The position numbers and the translations under genes were made by a program. This document shows positions 20 through 60,812 of a stretch of DNA of 64,000 nt, piece after piece; the first letter of the stretch is position 1, and every line of letters begins with the position of its first letter. The notes under the pieces were generated by a model. That model saw only the letters and a list, made by a program, of their open reading frames with translations, did not search any database and had not been told where the DNA came from. Source of the DNA: Anolis carolinensis (taxonomy: Eukaryota); the NCBI RefSeq assembly GCF_035594765.1, contig NC_085846.1, positions 5,939,190-6,003,189 of the forward strand, in the 5' to 3' direction.

Positions 20-1470
20 ACAAATTTAAAAACTTGGCCTTGTACTAAATGTCCTTGGACCAGAAGCTGGCCACTTGGAGTGCCTCTGTTGTCGCTGTGA
101 GAAGGTTCTCCATGGTGCACGTGGCAGGGTTCAAGCTGCATCATAGTCAGTGGTCTGTGGTTTGCTCTTCTCCAGCTTGTACGTCAAGAACTCCACTTTG
201 TGGCCCCATTTCTTAAGGTTGGATCTGCATCTCGTGGTGCCAGAGCGCAGTCTGTTCAGCGCCTTCCAAGTCTCCCACCCTTCTGTGTGCCCAGCAGGGA
301 GTTTCTCTTTGGGTATCAGCCACTGATGGAGTTTCCGGGTTTTAGCCTGCCACTTTTGGACTCTCACTTGCTGAGGTGTTCCTGTGAGTATCTCTGTAGA
401 TCTTAAGAAGCTATTTCTTGATTTAAGGCATTGGCGTGCTGACTGATGTCCGAACAGAGGATGGGCCGGAGATGTTACTGCCTTGGTCCTTTCATTACAG
501 TGTTATAGGTGGTGCAATACCGGCTAAACAGTATAATTTATCCAGCAGTGTAGGGCGTAGACATCCTGTGATAATGCGCCATGTCTCATTAAGAGCCACA
601 TCCACTGTTTGAACGTGGTGAGATGTATTCCAAACTGGGCGTGCGTATTCAGCAGCAGAGTAGCCAAGCGCAAGGACAGATGTCTTCACTGCACCAGGTT
701 GTGATCCCCAAGTTGTGCCAGTCAGCTTTCGTTTGATATTATTTCTAACGCCCACCTTTTGCTTGATAGTCAAGCAGTGCTTCTTGTAAGTCAGAGCACG
801 GTCCAAGGTAACTCCCAGGTATTTGGGTGTGCTGCAATGCTCCAGTGGGATTCCTTCCCATTTAATCCTCAGAGCTCGAGATACTTGTCTGTTCTTAAGG
901 TGAAAAGCACACCTTTGCATTTTAGATGTACAGTAGAGTCTAACTTATCCAAGACTCGCTTATCCAAGGTTCAGGATTATCCAAGCCATTTTTGTAGTCA
1001 ATGTTTTCAATATATCGTGATATTTTGGTGCTAAATTCGTAAATACGGTAATTACAACATAAAATTACTGCGTATTGAACTGCTTTTCTGTCAAATTTGT
1101 TGTATAACATGATGTTTTGGTGCTTAATTTGTAAAATCATAACCTAATTTGATGTTTAATAGGCTTTTCCTTAATCCCTCCTTATTATCCAAGATATTTG
1201 CTTATCCAAGCTTCTGCCGGCCCGTTTAGCTTGGATAAGTGAGACTCTACTGTATTATGAATCAGGTAGTTTGACCTTTAATAGGCAGCAAGAGCACCTA
1301 AAGCTTCGGAGAGCTTCTGTTCCAACATTTCAAAGCTCCCAGCTTGAGTGGTGATGGCACTCTCTTTCTGTCCCATCTGGCAGTGGCTACTCCTTTGTGT
1401 AAATGTTAAACATTGATGTAGCAAGAACACTCCCCTGAGGCAGGCCGTTTTTCTGTTTTCGCGAAAAGAG
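20..1470 (-). mobile_element. Vingi/Ingi-type LINE fragment, interrupted by a MITE at 931-1252
   Basis: Translations KYLGVTLDRALTY, KLTGTTWG, YSAAEYARPVW, WKALNRLRSG; same family as 15810-16430 and 36151-37592. Confidence 0.75.
931..1252. mobile_element. Tc1/mariner (pogo-type) MITE
   Basis: TIRs CAGTAGAGTCT(C/A)ACTTATCCAAG with TA TSDs at 929-930 and 1253-1254. Confidence 0.9.
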
Positions 1471-5442: not shown

Positions 5443-6563
5443 AGGTTCAAATCCAGGGAGCAGGGTTAGCCCCAGCTTCTGCCAACCTAGCAGTTCAAAA
5501 ACATGAACATGTGAGTAGATCAATAGGTACCACTCTGGCGAGAAGGTAACGGCACTCCATGTGTCCGACTCTGGGGGTTGGTGCTCATCTCAATTTCTAA
5601 GCCTAAGAGCTGGCGTTGTCCATAGACACTTCCAAGGTTATGTGGCCAGCATGGAGTGCCGTTACCTTCTCGCCAGAGCAGTGCCTATTGATCTACTCAC
5701 ATTTGCATGTTTTTTTAACTGCTAGATTATAGAATAATATTGTGCTATGGTAATAATATAATATATTGTATATACATGTAATATTGATACTAATATGATA
5801 ATGTAATGCTATATAATACTACTAATAGTACAATATTATAATATTATATATCAAATGTAATATTACTAATAATATTACAGTATAGTGCAATATAGTAGTA
5901 TATAATGCTAATATTGTGCTATGCTAATGATATAATATATAGTATGTAAATATAACTTGTAAGGAAGCCCCTGGTGGCACAGTGTGTTAAAGCGCTGAGC
6001 TGCTGAACTTGCAGACCGAAAGGTCCCAGGTTCAAATCCCGGGAGCAGAATGAGCACCCGCTGTTAGCCCCAGCTCCTGCCAACCTATCAGTTCGAAAAC
6101 ATGCAAATGTGAGTAGATCAATAGGTACCGCTCCAGCGGGGATGTAACAGCGCTCCATGCAGTCATGCCTTTTCCAGTGAGTCATAATGCACGATGTGCC
6201 CAAAGTATGATAGATCCGGCATGGGCAACCTTTGGGCCTCCAGGTGTTTTGGACTCCAACTCCCACGATTCCTAACAGCCTCTTCCTTTTGACCTTGGAG
6301 GTGTCTATGGACAACGCCGGCTCTTCAGCTTAGAAATGGAGATGAACACCAACCCCCAGAGTAGAACACGACTGGACTTAACGTCAGGGTAAATCTTTAC
6401 CTTTACTTATAACTTGTAAGCCACTCTGAGTTCCCTTCGGGGTGAGAGAAGGCGGGGTATAAATGTAGTAAAATAAATAAATAAATAGGTTGGCAGAAGC
6501 TGGGGCTAACAGCGGTAGCTCACCTAGCATCCTGGATTAACCCGCTGTGGCAGCGGGGGCTCC
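5443..6563. mobile_element. nested cluster of Sauria SINEs and an AT-rich L2-tailed element
   Basis: Plus-strand SINE piece 5443-5560. Minus-strand SINE split into 5561-5725 and 6487-6563. Inner plus-strand SINE 5964-6407 with TSD TATAACTTGTAAG. Confidence 0.8.
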
Positions 6564-6733
6564 TTAATAATATCATCATCATCATCATCATCATCATCTC
6601 TTTCTTGCTCACACAGACACACTTTTGATCATTGAACAGTAATGCAGTTGCCTACTTTCCAAAATGGCATCCCTAGCCTGGTTTGTACCAATCACAGAGA
6701 CAACGAGACCTTGTCAACTGCAATGAACGACAC

Positions 6734-6739
6734 TTTATT
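6734..6739 (-). terminator. polyadenylation signal AATAAA of the CCT8-like gene
   Basis: AATAAA ~40 nt after the stop, followed by GT-rich sequence on the minus strand. Confidence 0.7.
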
Positions 6740-6776
6740 TATAGGCTGGTCCCTGAAATCATCCGGGAGATCCCTC

Positions 6777-8432
6777 TCAGTCCAGTGCATCTGGTTCTTG
6801 GTCCCAGTTGGGATTTTCTCCTCTGAATTTGGGTCCGCCGCTCTTCTTGGCCACCATGACTTCGCTCACGCCCAGCAGCGTGACGGCCATCTGGGTGGCC
6901 AACGTGATGCCTCGTTGTTTCACTAGGAACGGATCTAGCAGGCCTTCCTTGGCGGCTTCGATCGTGCCGCCTTCCTCCAAGGCCACGGTGATGCCGGTGT
7001 TTTGCGTGCCCAGTTGGTGCTGAACTTCTAACTTTGCCATCACTTCGTTGACTCGGAGACCTGAATTTTCGGCCAAGGTGGCCGGGAGCGTTTTCAACGC
7101 TTGGGAGAACTCCAACACCCCATACTGCTCCGAACCCGGGAAATACATCCCCAGGGTATTGAGCCGCACCGATAGCGCCATCTCCGTTGCGCCAGCCCCT
7201 GGCAAGAGACGGCCATCCTTGCCCAAAAGCTTGTAGACGTTGATTCCGTCATGGATGGCTTCTTCTAAGCAGTCCAGCATGTCGCTGGTGGCTCCTCTCA
7301 GCACTATGGTGGCAACAGGACGATTGGTATTATCCTGATTGAAAATCACCACATTGGTGCTGCCGATCTCGGTCATGTAGACGCGGCGGCAGTGTCCGAT
7401 CTCTTCCGGGGATGGGACGGTTATGTCGAGCATCAGAGTGGCTCCCACAGCCATACACAGGTTCTGCAGCTCCATGCGGGAGGTCACCTGGACCACCAGT
7501 ATCCTATACCGGTTGGCGTAGAAGAGCGCCAAATCATCCAGCTTCCCTCCAACCACTACCACGTTGATGCTCGCCTTTGCAAGGCCCAGGACCTGCTGCT
7601 CCACAAGCCGCTCTTCCCCTTTGGTGTAGCTCTTCATGTCTGTGGCGTTTTCGAAGATAACGGTGCTCTTCAGTTCCAATCCAGGTGGACCAAAGGCACA
7701 GCAGAAGACCGCAATACGGGGTCTCTCCACCCGCTTGACAGTCCCTTCAACCTCTTTGCAGATGACCACGCCCTCCACAAGGCACGAGTCGCTGATGCCA
7801 CCCCCTGGGATTTTACAGAAGTGGATGAGATCCGGGTTGAAGGTGGTACGCTCTGGAGGCATCACCAACACGCAAGCCTTGGCCACCAGTTTGGACAAGA
7901 ACTTCTGGTGGCCAAAGACCTTGCTGCCCACAATGGTCTGAAGGACCCACCGCACCTCGTCCACGTCACGTGGGTTTTTCAGCACATGACACACCAGGCT
8001 AGGCAGCAGGCGCAAAGCTTCCTTGCAAGCCATCTCATAGCCAGTCTGGACGTGGACCACGGGTAGCCCGGATCGTAGCAGCTTCTCAGCGTTCTCCAAA
8101 AGTGCCCCTGCCAGGAGGATAACAAAATTGGTGCCGTCGCCCGTCTCTTCCTCTTGCGTCTCCGCAGCCGAGCGCAGCAAACAAGCCACGGGGTTCTCCA
8201 ACTCCAGTTCACGCAAGATGGTGGCAGCGTGGGAGGTGTGGAAAGTCTTGCCGAGATGGTTGATCACCAGCTTGTTGTGGCCCTGCGGACCGTAGCAGGT
8301 ACGCAAGCAGCGCACCAAAGCTTTGCAGGCCGTGATGTTGCTGAAGAGGGTCTCCTGGATGCCACTGAAATACTTCATGCCTGCCTTGAGCATCTGCGGA
8401 AGGCCAGGAGGCATGGGGACGTGGGTAGCCAT
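6777..8432 (-). CDS. CCT8L: CCT8-like group II chaperonin (T-complex protein 1 subunit theta-like), intronless CDS, 551 aa; probable retrogene
   Basis: Uninterrupted ORF MATHVPMPPGLPQMLKAGMKYFSG...WDQEPDALD, collinear with CCT8 (MALHVPKAPGFAQMLKEGAKHFSG). Motifs YGPxG, GDGTN, TIVLRG, PGAGATE and LAENSG are present. The true ATG at 8432 has a strong Kozak context (GCAATGG) and follows a pyrimidine tract plus CAG acceptor. The ORF-track start at 8468 lies inside a MITE. Confidence 0.93.
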   Translation of the reverse strand: MATHVPMPPGLPQMLKAGMKYFSGIQETLFSNITACKALVRCLRTCYGPQGHNKLVINHLGKTFHTSHAATILRELELENPVACLLRSAAETQEEETGDGTNFVILLAGALLENAEKLLRSGLPVVHVQTGYEMACKEALRLLPSLVCHVLKNPRDVDEVRWVLQTIVGSKVFGHQKFLSKLVAKACVLVMPPERTTFNPDLIHFCKIPGGGISDSCLVEGVVICKEVEGTVKRVERPRIAVFCCAFGPPGLELKSTVIFENATDMKSYTKGEERLVEQQVLGLAKASINVVVVGGKLDDLALFYANRYRILVVQVTSRMELQNLCMAVGATLMLDITVPSPEEIGHCRRVYMTEIGSTNVVIFNQDNTNRPVATIVLRGATSDMLDCLEEAIHDGINVYKLLGKDGRLLPGAGATEMALSVRLNTLGMYFPGSEQYGVLEFSQALKTLPATLAENSGLRVNEVMAKLEVQHQLGTQNTGITVALEEGGTIEAAKEGLLDPFLVKQRGITLATQMAVTLLGVSEVMVAKKSGGPKFRGENPNWDQEPDALD

Positions 8433-8435
8433 TGC

Positions 8436-8458
8436 CTGCGGAGAAAGCAGAAGCTTAG
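8436..8458 (-). promoter_or_regulatory. 3' splice acceptor of a 5'-UTR intron of the CCT8-like gene
   Basis: The minus strand reads ctaagcttctgctttctccgcAG|GCAATG; AG is at 8437-8436 and the exon starts at 8435. Confidence 0.7.
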
Positions 8459-8589
8459 ATATGGGCAAAATTTGTCCCTCCAGGTGTTTTGGACTTCAAC
8501 TCCCACAATTCCTAACAGCCGGTAGGCTGTTAGGAATTGTGGGAGTTGAAGTCCAAAACACCTGGAGGAACAAAGTTTGCCCAGGCCTG
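8456..8589. mobile_element. palindromic hAT-type MITE just upstream of the CCT8-like acceptor
   Basis: Fold-back arms centred on cagccggtaggctg; same family as 4752-4945. Confidence 0.85.
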
Positions 8590-8762
8590 CCCTTGAGTTT
8601 TGTGTTTGAGAATTCTGACCACTTCTAATTGAGAAATCCCAATATTTCACTGGACACTATGTTGTTGACATTCATGGCCCAAGAAATGGTCCCCAAAATA
8701 GCTTTCAGGAGAAGTTGTAGTGTTATGGAAGGTAAAAGAGAACATCACTATGCCAGTATATG

Positions 8763-9771
8763 CGAGGGTTGAATGAAAAGTAATGCCTCCACCTTCGTAA
8801 CTCCTCAACAGATGGCAGTCCTGGTCTGCAGCAGGTCCTGGCTTGTTCAGGAGACTCTACAATTACTTCCATTTGGCAGGAAGCCTTAGCATTGAACGGT
8901 TGTGTTGTTAAAGTGCGAAGTATGGAACCCTGCGCAGACGGTCGGTCAATGTGACATAAGCAATGTGCAGTCACTGAATTCTTGACAGCAGAAAGTGTCA
9001 CCCCAAAGGAGATTCCTCAGAGAATGCAAGCTGTTTAAGGGGATTGTGTTGATGTGAGTCCTGTGTGTCGTTGGGCGAGCAAGTTTAAAGATGTTGAGGT
9101 GGGAACATCTGACTTGCGTGACAAACAAAGAGTTGGACGTCCTGTGACAGCAACCACTGAGTTTCACAAGCAAAAAGTTGACAGATTGATTCAGGACGAT
9201 CATTGTATCACTCATCATCATATGGCCATCTGTCGGGGGTGCTTTGAATGCGATTTCCTGCTTCTTGGCAGGGGGTTGGATTAGATGGCCCATGAGGTCT
9301 CTTCCAACTCTACTATTCTATGATTCTATGACTCAGAGAGAAATTTCAAGCCTAATCAGCATTTCAGAAGAACATGTGGGTCCCATTATTGCTTTGCTTG
9401 GCTATCGGAAGATCTGTGCACGATGGGGACCCAGGATGCTGACGCCTGAAATGAAAGTGCTCAGACTTGAAATTTGCCAGGAACTCCTCTCACGTTATAA
9501 GAATGAAGGTGATGCCTTTCTCCTTTGGGGTGACCCCTTCTGCTGTCAAGAATTCAATGACTGCATGTTGCTTATAAGTCGCATTGACCAACCGTCTGCT
9601 TAGGGTTCCATACTTCACCCTTTAACAACACAACCGTTCAATGCTAAGGCTTCCCACCAAATGGAACTGTAGAGGAGAGTCTACCGAACAAGCCAGTACC
9701 TGCCGCGCACCAGTACTGCCATCTGTTGAGGTTTTACGAAGGTGGAGGCATTATTTTTCATTCAACCCTCG
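8763..9771 (+). mobile_element. internally deleted mariner transposon with ~250-bp inverted ends; CR1 3' fragment inserted at ~9222-9332
   Basis: Ends CGAGGGTTGAATGAAAA...TTTTCATTCAACCCTCG-TA; transposase remnants GRPVTAT and GYRKICARWGPRMLT (WVPR-like motif). Confidence 0.88.
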
Positions 9772-9888
9772 TACATGATGCCAATGGCTCAGTTCCTTCT
9801 AGGTTGTGTAAAACTGGCAAGAGAAGGCAATCAAAATCTGTCAATTCTGAGCAGCCTATTTCTCCAACACCTCTCTGTACTTCCTTAC

Positions 9889-9960
9889 GGTTGCTGCGCC
9901 CGCAGACTTTTTCCTTCTGTCGCCGCCGCCTACACGGGCATAGTCATCCCAGAGCGGTTC
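9889..9960 (-). other. candidate non-coding 5'-UTR exon of the CCT8-like gene
   Basis: Small CpG-rich unique patch ending in donor ACC|GTAAGG (intron starts at 9888), the nearest strong donor I found upstream of the 8436 acceptor. The 5' boundary is uncertain. Confidence 0.45.
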
Positions 9961-10128
9961 ACCAAGAAGGCCTTTATTTGTTGTATTATTTTTCTGTTAT
10001 GTTGTTTTAGTGTTGTTGTTTTGCTTCATTACTACTTTTCCTCGAAATCTCATAAGATGAATGACAATATATACATGTTTTAAACATTGTATTAAAGCAC
10101 TGGTTAATCCTAATCATAGTGTACTCCT

Positions 10129-11490
10129 GATGAGAGGAAAGACAAAGATCCACCCAGAGGAAAAGTGTTCTTACCAGACATCAAGGGAATCAATGACCGC
10201 ATAGGGAAGCGGAAGAAGAAAAACTATCTACAGACCCATCAAGAAAATCCAACCAATGCTACGTTCAGCAAAGGACAAGAGAGATCCTCCCACCTCTGTA
10301 GGAGTCTACCGTATACCACGCAGCTGTGGACAAGTCTACATAGGGAACACCAAATGCAGCATTGTCCAAACATGATACAAGGAACATGACAGACTAATCC
10401 AACCAGAGAAGTCAGCCAGAGCAGAGCACTTGATGGACCAATCTGGACACAGCATATTATTTGAGAACACAGAAATGCTGGACCACTCTCACAATCACCA
10501 TGTCAGACGACACAGAGAAGCCAATGGAACCCACAAGCATGTGGACAATTTCAACAGAAAGGAGGAAACCATGTAAATGAACAAAATCTGGCTACCAGTA
10601 TGAAAAAAACCCTCTAAAATCAGGACAGTAAATAAAGAACAACACTGAAAACAAGGAATTCCAGGTAGGAAACAATCAGGGCCAGCTAACACCTCCCAAC
10701 AAAGGATTCCCCTAGGTGGGAATCAGACAGGCCTTGCAGCTGCAAGACTTTTCAGTGCTAATTGGGGGCCGGGCTGTGGCGCAGGCTGGTTAGCAGCCAG
10801 CAGCAATAAATCACTCTGACCAAGAGGTCATGAGTTTGAGGCCAGCCCATGTTGGGGTGAGCACCCGACAATTAAACAAAATAAAATATAGCCCCTGCTC
10901 GTTGCTGACCTAAGCAACTTGAAAGATAGTTGCATCTGTCAAGTAGGAAATTTAGGTACCACTTATATGTGTGGAGGCTAATTTACGACATCATAAAATC
11001 ACCCAGCCACCGCTGGAATGAGGAAGTGCCGTCGCAGTGGATGATGAAGCAGCTGCTCCCCCTGTGGCCGGAATCCAGCATACCTTCAGGAAGCTGGAAG
11101 CTGGAGAAGGTTTAAATTGCCTCTGCGTCTGTCTCTGTCTCTGTTCTATGTTTATATGGCATTGAATGTTTGCCTCATAGGTGTACAATGTAATCTGCCC
11201 TGAGTCCCCTTCGGGGTGAGAAGGGCAGAATATAAATACTGCAAATAAATAAACAAATAAATAAATAAATAAATAAATAAGGCAATTAATTGCAACAGTC
11301 ACATTTGCCTCCAACAAACAAGAGTTCTTTCTCCCACCTTGGACCTTCCACAGATATATAAACCTCCCTTGCCTAGTTTCCAATATACCTCACAACCTCT
11401 GAGTATGCCTGCAATAGATGTGGGCTAAACATCAGGAGAGAATGCTTCTGGAACATGGCCATACAGCCCGGAAAACTCACAGCAACCCAT
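10129..11490 (+). mobile_element. Penelope-like element fragment (GIY-YIG remnant plus pseudo-LTR)
   Basis: Decayed frame reading GVYRIP.SCGQVYIG...EKSA.AEH...NFNRKEET; interrupted by a SINE at 10764-11280. Confidence 0.85.
10764..11280 (+). mobile_element. tRNA-derived SINE with L2-type tail
   Basis: Head GGGGGCCGGGCTGTGGCGCAG with A/B boxes; tail gagtccccttcggggtgagaagggc-(TAAA)n; relatives at 14397-14830, 20248-20720 and 27045-27503. Confidence 0.85.
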
Positions 11491-11595
11491 AACAGAAGAG
11501 ATGTCACAATGAGCAAAAAAGCAATGCCTCGTGGCCCTATCTTGGTGGTTCTGCACTTAAGAATAATGTGGCTCCGTGAATCAAGGTTTTCTTAG

Positions 11596-11668
11596 GGTTG
11601 TGGGCGAAACGTCAGGAGAGAATATTTCTAGAACATGGCCATACAGCCCGGAAAACATACAACAACCC
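11596..11668 (+). mobile_element. 73-bp Penelope pseudo-LTR insertion
   Basis: Perfect 14-bp TSD CAAGGTTTTCTTAG (11582-11595, 11669-11682). Confidence 0.8.
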
Positions 11669-13152
11669 CAAGGTTTTCTTAGTACTTCAAGACTAGTGTT
11701 TCCGCACATTTCTAGGGCTTCACAAACCATAAAGTAGGCTAGGAATTAGTACCATATATAATTGATTTCTTAAGAAACCTTTTAACAGTTTCAGATGGTC
11801 TGGGAATCATAACTACATACCCTACAACAGTTTGCAGATGGAAATGGGGACATGTCTGGCTTGGCAATACCAAAAATGAGGTCAAGAGAGCCAAAGAAAA
11901 AAAATCAAACAAGAAAGACTGCAGGTTTCTGCTTTCTGTCTTCTCCTCTCACCTGTCTCGTTAATTTGACGCAAACTAGTTTTACATTTTGAATTAGAAG
12001 AGAACATGGGTTCTGGAGATCAAGCCAAAGAGAGAAAATGGAAGGAGGAGACAGAAACTGGGATATTTTAGAAGTCTTCTAGACTCAGAGAGTTGGGCAG
12101 TCTATGTCTAATCTGGCTGCCCCTTTGACCTCTTTTTCATGGACCAAGAGGGCAAACCTACTGAAGATAAGTGAGAAGAGTCCAACTCGAGATGCCAAAG
12201 CCCTGAGAGATGCTAGGACATGAATAGTGGAAGCAACCAGTAAACAGTTGCTCTGACCAAGAAGCTGAGGAGGAAGTGATGTCACAATGCCAAGTTCTAG
12301 TGGTCAAGAAGAGGAAAGAGGCCTTCTGGTAAGGCCAAAGGCTACACGTGAAGCTCCTGAAGCCTCATCTTCTGTATTGTCCACATTGGGAATAGAGTGA
12401 GAAGTGAAACCTGCCCTGTTCACCTTGTACAAATGCATGTACCAAGGTGAAGATAGATAACTGTTGGATGTTGTAGATATTTGCGGCCACAATGGTCTCC
12501 TCCAGAAGACCTTAGAGAGTTCTACAAACCCAATCCCAATGGCACACTCTCCAGAAATACTCTTTTTTATGCCTGAAAATGCCAACATTTGTGGAATTTT
12601 GAGATATTTTTACTTTCAACTTTGCCCATCCCTGCTTTACCAGCTTAGTAAATGAAAGTCTAGGTTGGGTGTCTGCAAGTGAACATACAGTATGACCCCT
12701 AGGTCCTCTCTTAAGAATATTCTAAGCCATCCAGGGCAATTCTATGGTAATTTCCATTAATAATTTCAATCGGTTTCAGTTTTATCCACAATTTCCGATT
12801 TCCATTGTAAATTCAGGAATATGTGGATATGGGGGTTGTACTATACTCAAAATATTTCAAGCCTTTCTCAATATATTTGGGTTCCCACTTTGGAAAGACA
12901 GATGCTCAGTTCACATGGGAAGCTAATATAGTTCCCTATATCGAGAGAGCGGCGGGATAAAAATAAAGCAAATAAGTAAAAATATTAATTAGTTCACCTC
13001 TTTATGCCAAACCTAGGCAACTGTTGTTAAGATCCCATACCTTCTGGTGGGGTGGAGACTGAAATAATTTGACTGCTCTTTAAAGGAGTGGAAGAGTTGT
13101 GGTTAGTTGCCACCAAGTCAGCTTCAGCTCAAAGCACTTATATAAATGAGAG

Positions 13153-13200
<48 letters not shown>
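13153..13200 (+). repeat. (TAA)n microsatellite
   Basis: About 16 perfect units. Confidence 0.95.
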
Positions 13201-13201
<1 letters not shown>

Positions 13202-14005
13202 GGATCAGGCCTTCTCTCTCCTTTTTCAGTGTCCCACCTGGCTATGGCTCACGAACGGGACCCTGAGGGAGACAGAAGGCCTGATCCTTGCAGCCCAGGA
13301 GCAAGCCATCAGAACAAAGGCAATCAAGGCCAAGATCGAAAAATCAGCTGATTACCCAAAATGCAGACTGTGCAAGGAAACCGACAAAACCATTGACCAT
13401 ATCCTCAGCTGCTGTAAGAAAATCACACAGACAGACTACAAACAGAGGCACAACCATGTGACCCAAATGATTCATTGGAACTTATGCCTCAAGTCCCACC
13501 TCCCAGCAGCAAAGAACTGGTGGGATCACAAACCTGCAAAAGTATTGGAAAATGAACATGCAAAGATACTGTGGGACTTCCGAATCCAGACTGACAAAGT
13601 TCTGGAACACAACACACCAGACATCACAGTTGTGGAAAAGAAAAAGGTTTGGATCATTGATGTTGCCATCCCAGGTGACAGTCGCATTGACGAAAAACAA
13701 CAGGAAAAACTCAGCCGCTATCAGGACCTCAAGATTGAACTGCAAAGACTCTGGCAGAAACCAGTGCAGGTGGTCCCGGTGGTGATGGGCACACTGGGTG
13801 CCGTGCCAAAAGATCTCAGCCGGCATTTGGAAACAATAGGCATTGACAAAATTACAATCTGCCAACTGCAAAAGGCCACCCTACTGGGATCTGCGCGCAT
13901 CATCCGAAAAGACATCATACAGTCCTAGACACTTGGGAAGTGTTCGACTTGTGATTTTGTGAGACGAAATACAGCATGTCTATCTTGTTTGCTGTGTCAT
14001 ACAAT
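13201..14005 (+). mobile_element. 5'-truncated R4-clade (Dong/Rex6-type) LINE in a (TAA)n microsatellite
   Basis: The ORF carries a CCHC knuckle (CRLC...HILSCC), RHN, and a restriction-like endonuclease PD...D motif (NTPDITVV...IIDVAIP); TAA repeats flank both sides. Confidence 0.9.
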
Positions 14006-43100: not shown

Positions 43101-43625
43101 AACATCTTTCCTTTTTATCTGCCCTGGAACTCCCACCATTCAGCTTCAACTCTGATTTCTAGCAATAGATGAAGGCGATATCGAATGAATACACTCTTTT
43201 TTTAAAGCTTCAATTTTGAAAAAAAAATCATTTCACAGCTGAAAACGACACAGGTGGCCAAGCATCATCAGAGGGATTAGTATTACTGAGGAAGAACACA
43301 TAGAGCAGGAGAGGATGCAGCAGTTTGCGTTTGACTGAATCTGCTGGGAAGGACAAGGATCTTCTCTCTGATGAATGAATTGAGTGCAAACATTTTTGTG
43401 CTTTATTGAACTATGCTGAAGTGCAAACAGGAGAGGGAAGCCAAGGCATTTTAAATGCAGTTGAAAAAAGTGGGACAGCAGAGGACTGATTAGGTCTGTC
43501 CTGTCAAATATGGAGAGCAGGAGGGTTTGCTACTTCCTTGCTGGGCCTTTCTTGAGGTCCTGCCTGAAATATCCCGCCTGTCCATCCTAGAACTTCAGAT
43601 CAGGGTGGTTGGTGCCTTCTAGATG

Positions 43626-45070
43626 CCTTCTTGGAAAACGGGAGAAGTCCCAGCAGATTGGAGGAGGGTGAATGTGGTCCCTATCTTCAAGAAGGGAAAA
43701 AAGAACGACCCAAACAATTACCGTCCAGTCAGCCTCACATCGATACCAGGCAAAATTCTGGAAAAGATCATTAAGGAAGCGGTCTGCAAACACTTAGAAA
43801 CAGATGCAGTCATTGCTAATAGTCAACACGGATTTACCAAAAACGAGTCATGCCAGACTAATCTGATCTCTTTTTTCAATAGAGTTACGAGTTGGGTCGA
43901 TACAGGGAACGTTGTGGATGTAGCCTACCTGGATTTCAGTAAGGCCTTCAACAAAGTCCCCCACGACCTTCTGGCAAACAAACTAGTAAACTGTGGGCTA
44001 GACAAAACTACGGTTAGGTGGATCTGTAATTGGCTAAGCGAACGAACCCAAAGGGTGCTCACCAATGCGTTGTCTTCATCATGGAAAGAAGTGACAAGTG
44101 GAGTGCCGCAGGGCTCCGTCCTGGGCCCGGTTCTGTTCAACATCTTTATTAACGACTTAGACGAAGGGTTAGAAGGCACGATCATCAAGTTTTCAGACGA
44201 CACCAAACTGGGAGGGATAGCCAACACCCCAGAAGACAGGAGCAGAATTCAAAATGATCTTGACAGACTAGAGAAATGGGCCGAAACTAACAAAATGAAG
44301 TTCAACAGGGACAAATGCAAGATACTTCACTTCGGCAGAAAAAATGAAATGCAAAGATACAGAATGGAGGACGCCTGGCTCGACAGCAGGACTTGTGAAA
44401 AAGACCTTGGAGTCCTCGTGGACAACAAGTTAAACATGAGCCAACAATGTGATGTGGCTGCTAAGAAAGCCAACAGGATTTTGGCCTGCATCAATAGGGG
44501 AATAGCGTCTAGATCCAGGGAAGTCATGCTCCCCCTCTATTCTGCCTTGGTCAGACCACACCTGGAATACTGCGTCCAATTCTGGGCACCGCAGTTGAAG
44601 GGAAATGTTGACAAGCTGGTAGGTGTCCAGAAGAGGGCAACTAAAATGATCAAGAGTCTGGAGAACAAGCCCTATGAGGAGAGGCTTAAAGAACTGGGCA
44701 TGTTTAGCCTGCAGAAGAGAAGGCTGAGAGGAGATATGATAGCCATGTACAAATATGTGAGGGGAAGTCATAGGGAGGAGGGAGCAAGCTTGTTTTCTGC
44801 TACCCTGGAGACTAGGACGCGGAATAATGGCTTAAAACTACAGGAAAGGAGATTCCACCTGAACATCAGGAAGAACTTCCTCACTGAGAAGGGCTGTTCA
44901 GCAGTGGAACTCTCTGCCCTGGAGTGTGGTGGAGGCTCTTTCTTTGGAGGCTTTTAAGCAGAGGCTGGATGGCCATCTGTCGGGGGTGCTTTGAATGCGA
45001 TTTCCTGCTTCTTGGCAGGGAGTTGGACTGGATGGCCCATGAGGTCTCATCCAACTCTATGATTCTATGA
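43626..45070 (+). mobile_element. young 5'-truncated CR1 LINE (ORF2 RT region) in a DNAH2 intron
   Basis: 444-aa open frame with NYRPVSLTS, YLDFSKAF, GVPQGSVLGP, FSDDTKL; (ATTCTATG)n tail; TSD TTCTAGATG. Confidence 0.95.
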
Positions 45071-60573: not shown

Positions 60574-60812
60574 CTTCAATGATTCACTGGACTCGCCAGA
60601 TCAAGGAGGTGTTGAGGGCCCAGGAAGCTGTGGAGAGCAGGGAGAGCTCGGGCCCGCTGGAGGAGATTGAGTTCTGGAGGAACCGCTGCACCGATCTCTC
60701 AGAAATCAGCAAGCAGCTCTACCAAGAAGGGGTGAAGCACATTGAATCCATTTTGAGTTTGTCCAAGTCTTCCTACGTTGCCCCATTCCAGCGACTATCC
60801 AAACAAATACAG
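60574..60812 (+). CDS. DNAH2: DNAH2 coding exon 6 (TSMIHWTRQIKEVL...GPLEEIEFWRNRC...KQIQ), start of the DHC N-terminal region 1
   Basis: 239 nt, AG/GT bounded; near-identical to human SMIHWTRQIKE...GPLEEIEFWRNRC. Confidence 0.97.

Follow-up and report, generated by a model that had tools for sequence, protein, structure and literature searches.

A lizard CCT8L gene between EFNB3 and DNAH2 points to an origin of the CCT8L chaperonins before sharks and bony fishes diverged

Several diverged chaperonins belong to the lineage of CCT8 (TCP-1 theta), among them MKKS/BBS6, BBS10 and BBS12 and the CCT8L class (human CCT8L2/CCT8L1P, mouse Cct8l1), whose therian copies are single-exon genes (PMC2846930). 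In the available text of that paper, the only dedicated CCT8L study found, the class is dated to the onset of mammals, with none found in chicken, Xenopus laevis or zebrafish; platypus is not in its alignment (supplement S17). The human genes lie at 7q36.1 (CCT8L1) and 22q11.1 (CCT8L2) (PMC2846930, Table 1), cattle CCT8L2 lies in one window with XRCC2 and KMT2C (PMC11011013), and human CCT8L2 ESTs are mainly testicular (PMC2846930). A second copy of a TRiC subunit has been proposed to act in spermatogenesis for CCT6B and for testis-specific CCT paralogs of planarians, and TRiC is present on mammalian sperm axonemes (cited in PMC12701526; PMC11779644). By analogy, the lizard gene described below would likely work alike, although CCT6B differs in having 14 exons and in staying near its parent (PMC2846930, Table 1). 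Whether CCT8L2 is a member of the axoneme-tethered TRiC of mammalian sperm is stated as open in the available passages of two papers (PMC11779644; PMC12701526). Among the literature matches listed, none dates CCT8L to reptiles or sharks and none joins CCT8L with a lizard; a prior report is possible, for instance in gene-age supplements.

The window analyzed here is a stretch of 64,000 nucleotides from Anolis carolinensis, and its minus strand carries at 6777..8432 a CCT8L coding sequence of 551 aa in a single coding exon (open reading frame, Pfam, TIGR02346, alignment and structural model). The frame has no internal stop. Pfam Cpn60_TCP1 matches residues 41-530, and the CCT-theta profile TIGR02346 scores 578 bits, above its cut-off of 455.9, compared with 860 for canonical CCT8 and 301 for human CCT8L2. 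In the alignments shown, human CCT8 and the lizard protein are collinear over residues 1-546 with one single-residue gap. The AlphaFold2 model (pLDDT 84.9, pTM 0.80) has human TRiC chains as its top fold matches (~48% identity, TM ~0.86), a search of the ESM Atlas gave nothing but CCT-theta clusters, and the protein's own cluster contains two Anolis proteins, labelled 'theta' and 'theta-like'. An earlier note on this DNA had described an intronless, stop-free frame of 551 aa collinear with CCT8; the frame is whole, stop-free and collinear, but it is intronless in the coding region only, as a GT-AG intron lies in the 5'-UTR. It also coincides with the sole CpG-island-like stretch that passed the filter in the window (GC 0.57, CpG o/e 0.67, GC3 0.72).

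A search of the same genome returned seven matches: the window locus, four exons of canonical CCT8 on contig C3 and two weak ones (C1, C4). The coding sequence of canonical lizard CCT8 is spread over 15 exons bounded by AG/GT ends, in line with the multi-exon structure that the earlier note gave for vertebrate CCT8, and all 14 of its coding introns are missing from the gene in the window. The two proteins are 47% identical and share fold, length, the GP loop and the GDGTN motif, whereas lizard CCT8L has no coding introns, much longer branches, a His where the CCT8 motif TND has its Asp, and a different C-terminal tail. Being neither multi-exon nor inside the vertebrate CCT8 clade, it does not belong to CCT8. 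With the CCT8L class it shares the clade, the single coding exon and the derived motifs CYGP, LELExP, GLP, FGP and AKKS. Thus, the lizard gene is an intact CCT8-fold copy without coding introns and the lizard member of the CCT8L family.

The placement of this gene comes from four maximum-likelihood trees: 41 of the 80 collected sequences under LG+G, 27 rows under LG+C20 with Pristis and mouse among the rows dropped as long branches, 25 rows with frogs and alligator dropped and human CCT8L2 included, and the same 25 rows without both termini; lamprey, hagfish and monotreme sequences are in none of them. CCT8L forms one clade in all four (100/100), vertebrate CCT8 forms a separate clade (100/99), and both clades contain sharks. 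Therian CCT8L nests with reptiles at 90/97 (41 rows), 99/99 (LG+C20), 100/100 (25 rows) and 100/100 (termini removed). The suggestion that the lizard protein is an ortholog of CCT8L2, for which a tree of CCT8 and CCT8L proteins had been proposed as the check, was therefore confirmed: it groups with therian CCT8L2 inside the amniote clade (99/99 under LG+C20; 100/100 under LG+G without the frog and crocodilian rows), separate from CCT8. Approximately unbiased (AU) tests under LG+G rejected a mammalian origin joining therian CCT8L to mammalian CCT8 (p 4.7e-66), a non-mammalian CCT8L clade from which therians are excluded (p 1.0e-6) and a separate origin in sharks joining shark CCT8L to shark CCT8 (p 4e-6). 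The therian stem is very long (0.88-1.16 changes per column), and therians lean to squamates rather than to all sauropsids (43/39 to 90/88), the arrangement of the species tree not being rejected (p 0.16). The basal order of shark, sturgeon and coelacanth CCT8L lacks resolution, and bootstrap values of 57-68 give weak backing to the root against tunicates. By alignment columns, squamates and therians stand together against CCT8 in 30, of which 22 have the CCT8 state in the outgroups, therians and CCT8 stand against squamates in 10, and squamates share the CCT8 state in 34. There is high confidence in the whole reading frame, the CCT8 fold, the orthology with therian CCT8L2 and the membership of a clade that includes sharks.

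Full-length CCT8L relatives are 68-85% identical to the lizard protein in squamates, 57-61% in turtles, 53-54% in salamanders, 50% in the coelacanth and 49% in the sturgeon, and further carriers are crocodilians, the frogs Ascaphus and Pelodytes, the paddlefish, a sawfish and five further sharks. One shark, Heptranchias, has both CCT8 and CCT8L, on different contigs. An ermine CCT8L2 query returned 109 clusters of therian type and then squamate and turtle proteins before any vertebrate CCT8. UniRef calls the proteins of Pelusios, Chelydra and Crocodylus 'CCT8 like 2', and orthology among amniotes is therefore already implicit in databases; what is already known is this naming of turtle and crocodile copies, and what is new is that the origin of the class moves from mammals to jawed vertebrates. 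The earlier estimate, an age of CCT8L reaching back at least to the ancestor of amniotes, holds as a minimum; it is nevertheless too young because sharks, sturgeons and the coelacanth carry the gene. Judging from the sequences, CCT8L appears to be as old as jawed vertebrates and not a mammalian invention. Sharks and bony fishes split roughly 420-460 million years ago; with an origin moved from the onset of mammals to that split, the trees more than double the published age of the class. No CCT8L of monotremes, lampreys, hagfishes, birds or teleosts came up in the searches for relatives, which were word-limited and give no proof of absence. The frog proteins have diverged strongly, with 39% identity to lizard CCT8L, and have long insertions after the first equatorial part, with the tail motif still kept; a Xenopus copy of similar divergence could have escaped the 2010 study.

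In the lizard, CCT8L sits between EFNB3 and DNAH2. EFNB3 lies on the plus strand and ends ~64 kb ahead of the window start, and a DNAH2 exon, divergent from CCT8L, is found at 60579..60812 (+) (Pfam scan; best PDB match DNAH2, E 4e-33), so that the claimed adjacency to DNAH2 holds. Two stretches near 50.9 and 52.0 kb are, by similarity, candidate DNAH2-like exons. No further genes were found in the EFNB3-DNAH2 interval: from 151 candidate frames, 147 of them referenceable, the scan took the 108 richest in unique sequence apart from the CCT8L frame, and none of these non-repeat frames matches Pfam (0/108), a scan that short exons could escape. Repeat matches make up 38% of the window; between EFNB3 and CCT8L they make up 70%. 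A retroelement-derived reverse transcriptase (PF00078) is matched among window frames at 43623-44957 (+), 13146-13928 (+) and 495-920 (-), and the two other frames in that set are presumably retroelement remnants. According to the available text of one preprint, which mentions no chaperonin, DNAH2 lies between EFNB3 and KDM6B in mammals and non-avian sauropsids, and birds have no DNAH2 between these two genes and no assembly gaps there (bioRxiv 2021.01.29.428748). A loss of CCT8L together with DNAH2 in birds would offer a reason for the blank in chicken.

The mammalian site was located in the same lizard, the only species in which gene neighbors were read. XRCC2 and a putative KMT2C-like gene, with an FYRC match and named in part for its adjacency to XRCC2, lie near 110.46-110.70 Mb of the same contig, ~105 Mb from CCT8L. 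In 400 kb around XRCC2-KMT2C, tblastn with eight proteins and a profile search gave no trace of CCT8L (best E 0.47). Lizard CCT8L is thus not at XRCC2-KMT2C, a site that is not part of the published definition of the class, and the impression that its position differs from the mammalian loci was right: EFNB3-DNAH2 in the lizard, as against XRCC2-KMT2C in cattle. Because the latter site is empty in the lizard, the gene moved in one lineage. Another FYRC-domain gene, at C6:13,984,937-13,985,158 (-), has a single open frame of 365 residues; it resembles TBRG1 and is possibly another intronless copy.

Evidence for transcription comes from four of 24 listed sequencing runs (X2, X5, X9 and X10), which were mapped onto 6000-9300; no listed run is recorded as RNA, so that the RNA nature of the runs is a guess. 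Four runs contain almost none of the sequence words, which carries no information on tissue. Contigs of X2, X5 and X10, from three studies, cover the reading frame and stop at 8437, 8435 and 8435, respectively, by an AG three bases before the ATG. Conversely, the contig of X9 continues into both flanks (to 8498 and to 6668), and this run, which behaves like DNA, served as control only. A loose end of 19 bases in X5 has a single placement in the window, at 12162-12180 (0/100 shuffles), and a GT donor read from the sequence adjoins it. These contig ends, the loose end and the donor define a 5'-UTR intron of 3,726 bases at 8436..12161 (-), GT...AG with its acceptor three bases before the ATG and its junction resting on one contig of one run, and the 3' end of a non-coding upstream exon at 12162..12180 (-). 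The X2 end, different by two bases, may reflect a second upstream exon. At the other end, the contigs of X2 and X10 (two studies) stop at 6714, ~20 bases past an AATAAA poly(A) signal at 6734..6739 (-), and that of X5 stops at 6729. Transcription and splicing of lizard CCT8L are indicated, from runs only guessed to be RNA. Near the upstream exon, no X-box, TATA or CRE was found, and its one forkhead 7-mer (nine in the window) is at chance level. A promoter common with DNAH2 is rejected as far as tested, the upstream exon lying at 12.2 kb and the DNAH2-like exons from ~50.9 kb, a comparison of exon positions rather than of mapped start sites. Between reads and genome, 9 of the 12 listed coding differences are synonymous (pN/pS 0.11-0.15, p 0.0003-0.002, the range reflecting transition weighting); these mostly synonymous differences and the whole-length proteins across squamates show purifying selection.

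Residue functions are known from work on group II chaperonins, in which the Asp of the TND motif and the Asp of the DDG motif are catalytic. In lizard CCT8L, most of the ATP pocket is retained: the GDGTN phosphate-binding loop (residues 98-102, 8127..8141 (-)) is identical to that of CCT8, the GP loop and Lys171 are retained, and Asp395 (7248..7250 (-)) aligns with the catalytic Asp of DDG. His68 (8229..8231 (-)) replaces the Asp of TND and is His in 12/12 squamate rows. The CCT8L pattern of a kept GP loop with altered ATP-hydrolysis residues is thus present in the lizard, in a form less degenerate than in therians: Asp395 is kept in 12/12 squamate rows, and all 13 therian rows lack both Lys171 and Asp395. 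Salamander, coelacanth, sturgeon and shark CCT8L have the TND Asp. The phosphate loop reads GDGR in shark CCT8L and GEGAG in Ascaphus, and salamanders and frogs lack an equivalent of Asp395; the use of ATP is therefore not uniformly kept across CCT8L. The alligator protein has Thr-His for Ser-Lys at residues 170-171, as therians do, a state that is probably convergent.

The therian and lizard genes further differ in that the lizard one lies at EFNB3-DNAH2 rather than XRCC2-KMT2C, has a 5'-UTR intron, keeps a CCT8-like N-terminus and has a GENPNWD tail. It also passes the CCT-theta cut-off, as do 7 of the 8 non-mammalian CCT8L proteins tested (Ascaphus fails) but none of the three therian ones. 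Of the motif states that the earlier note had read as CCT8L2-like, CYGP, LELExP, G[LV]P, FGP, LRGAT, ALKxLPxxLAEN and AKKS occur in 0/15 vertebrate CCT8 rows, but LPxL (13/15 CCT8) and PGAGATE (8/15 CCT8 and 7/11 invertebrate outgroups) are not diagnostic. The note had also called both termini CCT8-like, which is true of the N-terminus (60%, residues 1-25) but not of the C-terminal tail (26%), which is specific to CCT8L. This tail, KKSGGPKxRGENPNWDxEPD (residues 529-551, 6780..6848 (-)), has low model confidence. The lizard tail is nonetheless 71-81% identical to the shark, sturgeon, coelacanth, salamander, frog, turtle and alligator rows, and the motif is present in 55/59 non-mammalian CCT8L rows, two more having a one-letter variant and two ending differently. 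NWD is found in 0/109 therian tails and NPNWD in 0/79 CCT8 tails.

A reasonably probable explanation, and the best overall, is that a copy of CCT8 arose before the shark split, likely through retroposition, and that in the germ line it likely stands in for CCT8 within TRiC, with predicted binding but slow hydrolysis of ATP and a conserved tail of its own. CCT8 mRNA would very probably have been reverse-transcribed and inserted in an early jawed-vertebrate ancestor, a promoter being gained via the upstream non-coding exon; a poly(A) remnant and a target-site duplication are not expected to survive for several hundred million years. It is somewhat more probable than its denial, as one joint proposal, that EFNB3-DNAH2 is the older site, that the therian copy came to lie at XRCC2-KMT2C, after which its tail, its nucleotide-sensing Lys and its two catalytic Asp disappeared, and that birds lost the gene together with DNAH2. 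More tentatively, CCT8L may occupy the CCT8 position in spermatogenic cells and aid the folding of tubulin, actin or flagellar proteins. It would there replace CCT8 in part of the TRiC pool, binding ATP and hydrolyzing it slowly, with the tail directed to a substrate or cofactor. We infer this role in testis TRiC because of the human testis ESTs, the planarian paralogs, the TRiC of sperm axonemes and the retained CCT8-like features.

Other accounts of the origin were weighed against early retroposition. The earlier note had left room for an independent retrocopy, here one in squamates that resembles mammalian CCT8L by convergence, a view in keeping with a genomic site unlike that of the mammalian gene and with the higher identity of the lizard protein to CCT8 (47%) than to human CCT8L2 (39%). 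This view is already refuted and has next to no probability: trees that join lizard CCT8 to squamate CCT8L are rejected by the AU test (p 1.9e-75, LG+G), the turtle, salamander and coelacanth proteins are nearer to lizard CCT8L than is any CCT8, and human CCT8L2 is itself closer to the lizard protein (39%) than to CCT8 (32%). Alternatively, CCT8L might be an old duplicate at the DNA level, for instance one left by a genome doubling early in vertebrates, whose introns disappeared afterwards; the duplication precedes the shark split, the root lacks resolution and the lizard gene has an intron in its 5'-UTR. This is quite improbable given that 14/14 coding introns are absent in the lizard, that therian copies are single-exon (PMC2846930) and that shark contigs leave no room for introns. 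The genomic contigs that carry three shark CCT8L proteins of 551 residues (1,656 coding bases) measure 1,973, 2,248 and 2,795 bases, and the shortest leaves at most 317 non-coding bases, too little for 14 introns; sterlet CCT8L (a sturgeon; 538 residues) is on a contig of 4,114 bases, all lengths being those of the genome-annotation records. Because full-length proteins fit on contigs of 2-3 kb, the shark coding region is probably intronless, and these lengths, rather than a reading of the DNA, suggest an intronless state of the coding region that predates the separation of sharks and bony fishes. The regions around CCT8 and around EFNB3/DNAH2 also belong, we assume, to different paralogy groups, which would count against the DNA-level duplicate.

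The role in the ring is a separate matter. With the same ancestry, CCT8L might act outside TRiC, as a monomer or as a cofactor like MKKS, BBS10 or BBS12, the tail being a docking motif, and this is unlikely while deserving more weight than either alternative above. [quoted passage not shown] Even in the fast-evolving frogs, no part is better conserved than the tail, at 76% compared with 31% in the apical domain; 12/12 squamates lack one catalytic Asp, and the Ascaphus and Pelodytes copies have long insertions. Conversely, the lizard protein has a CCT8-like N-terminus, full length without insertions, GP, GDGTN, Lys171 and Asp395, and it passes the CCT-theta cut-off. MKKS/BBS6, BBS10 and BBS12 differ in coming from a separate, earlier duplication and in being far more diverged, the lizard protein being a near full CCT-theta match.

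If CCT8L does act as a germ-line TRiC subunit of early retroposed origin, the lizard, turtle or shark protein would represent a ring-competent ancestral form with which the derivation of human CCT8L2 could be tested. The non-mammalian proteins, much nearer to CCT8 than the human one and with a common tail motif, provide a handle on the question of CCT8L2 and sperm TRiC. A fuller version of this history is doubtful: CCT8L would be among the oldest retrogenes that survive in vertebrates, older than the shark split and kept for >400 million years as a theta subunit of the germ line. Its conserved GENPNWD tail would define a sperm-specific TRiC, and the gene would have been deleted in birds at one stroke with DNAH2 and re-seeded in therians at a new site with loss of the tail and of ATPase residues.

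The tails of the parent gene vary as well. Canonical lizard CCT8 has two tandem candidate last coding exons (G000:C3:73,959,244-73,960,343) that give different C-tails, and these match the 'isoform X1/X2' tails of fish and mammals. In turkey, CCT8 has an additional exon between the last two exons that is preferred in the ductus deferens, according to the available text (PMC9922982). The end of the long tail of fish CCT8 (WDEEPD) is similar to the end of the CCT8L tail (WDQEPD), and because of this resemblance the CCT8L retrocopy may derive from a long-tail CCT8 isoform.
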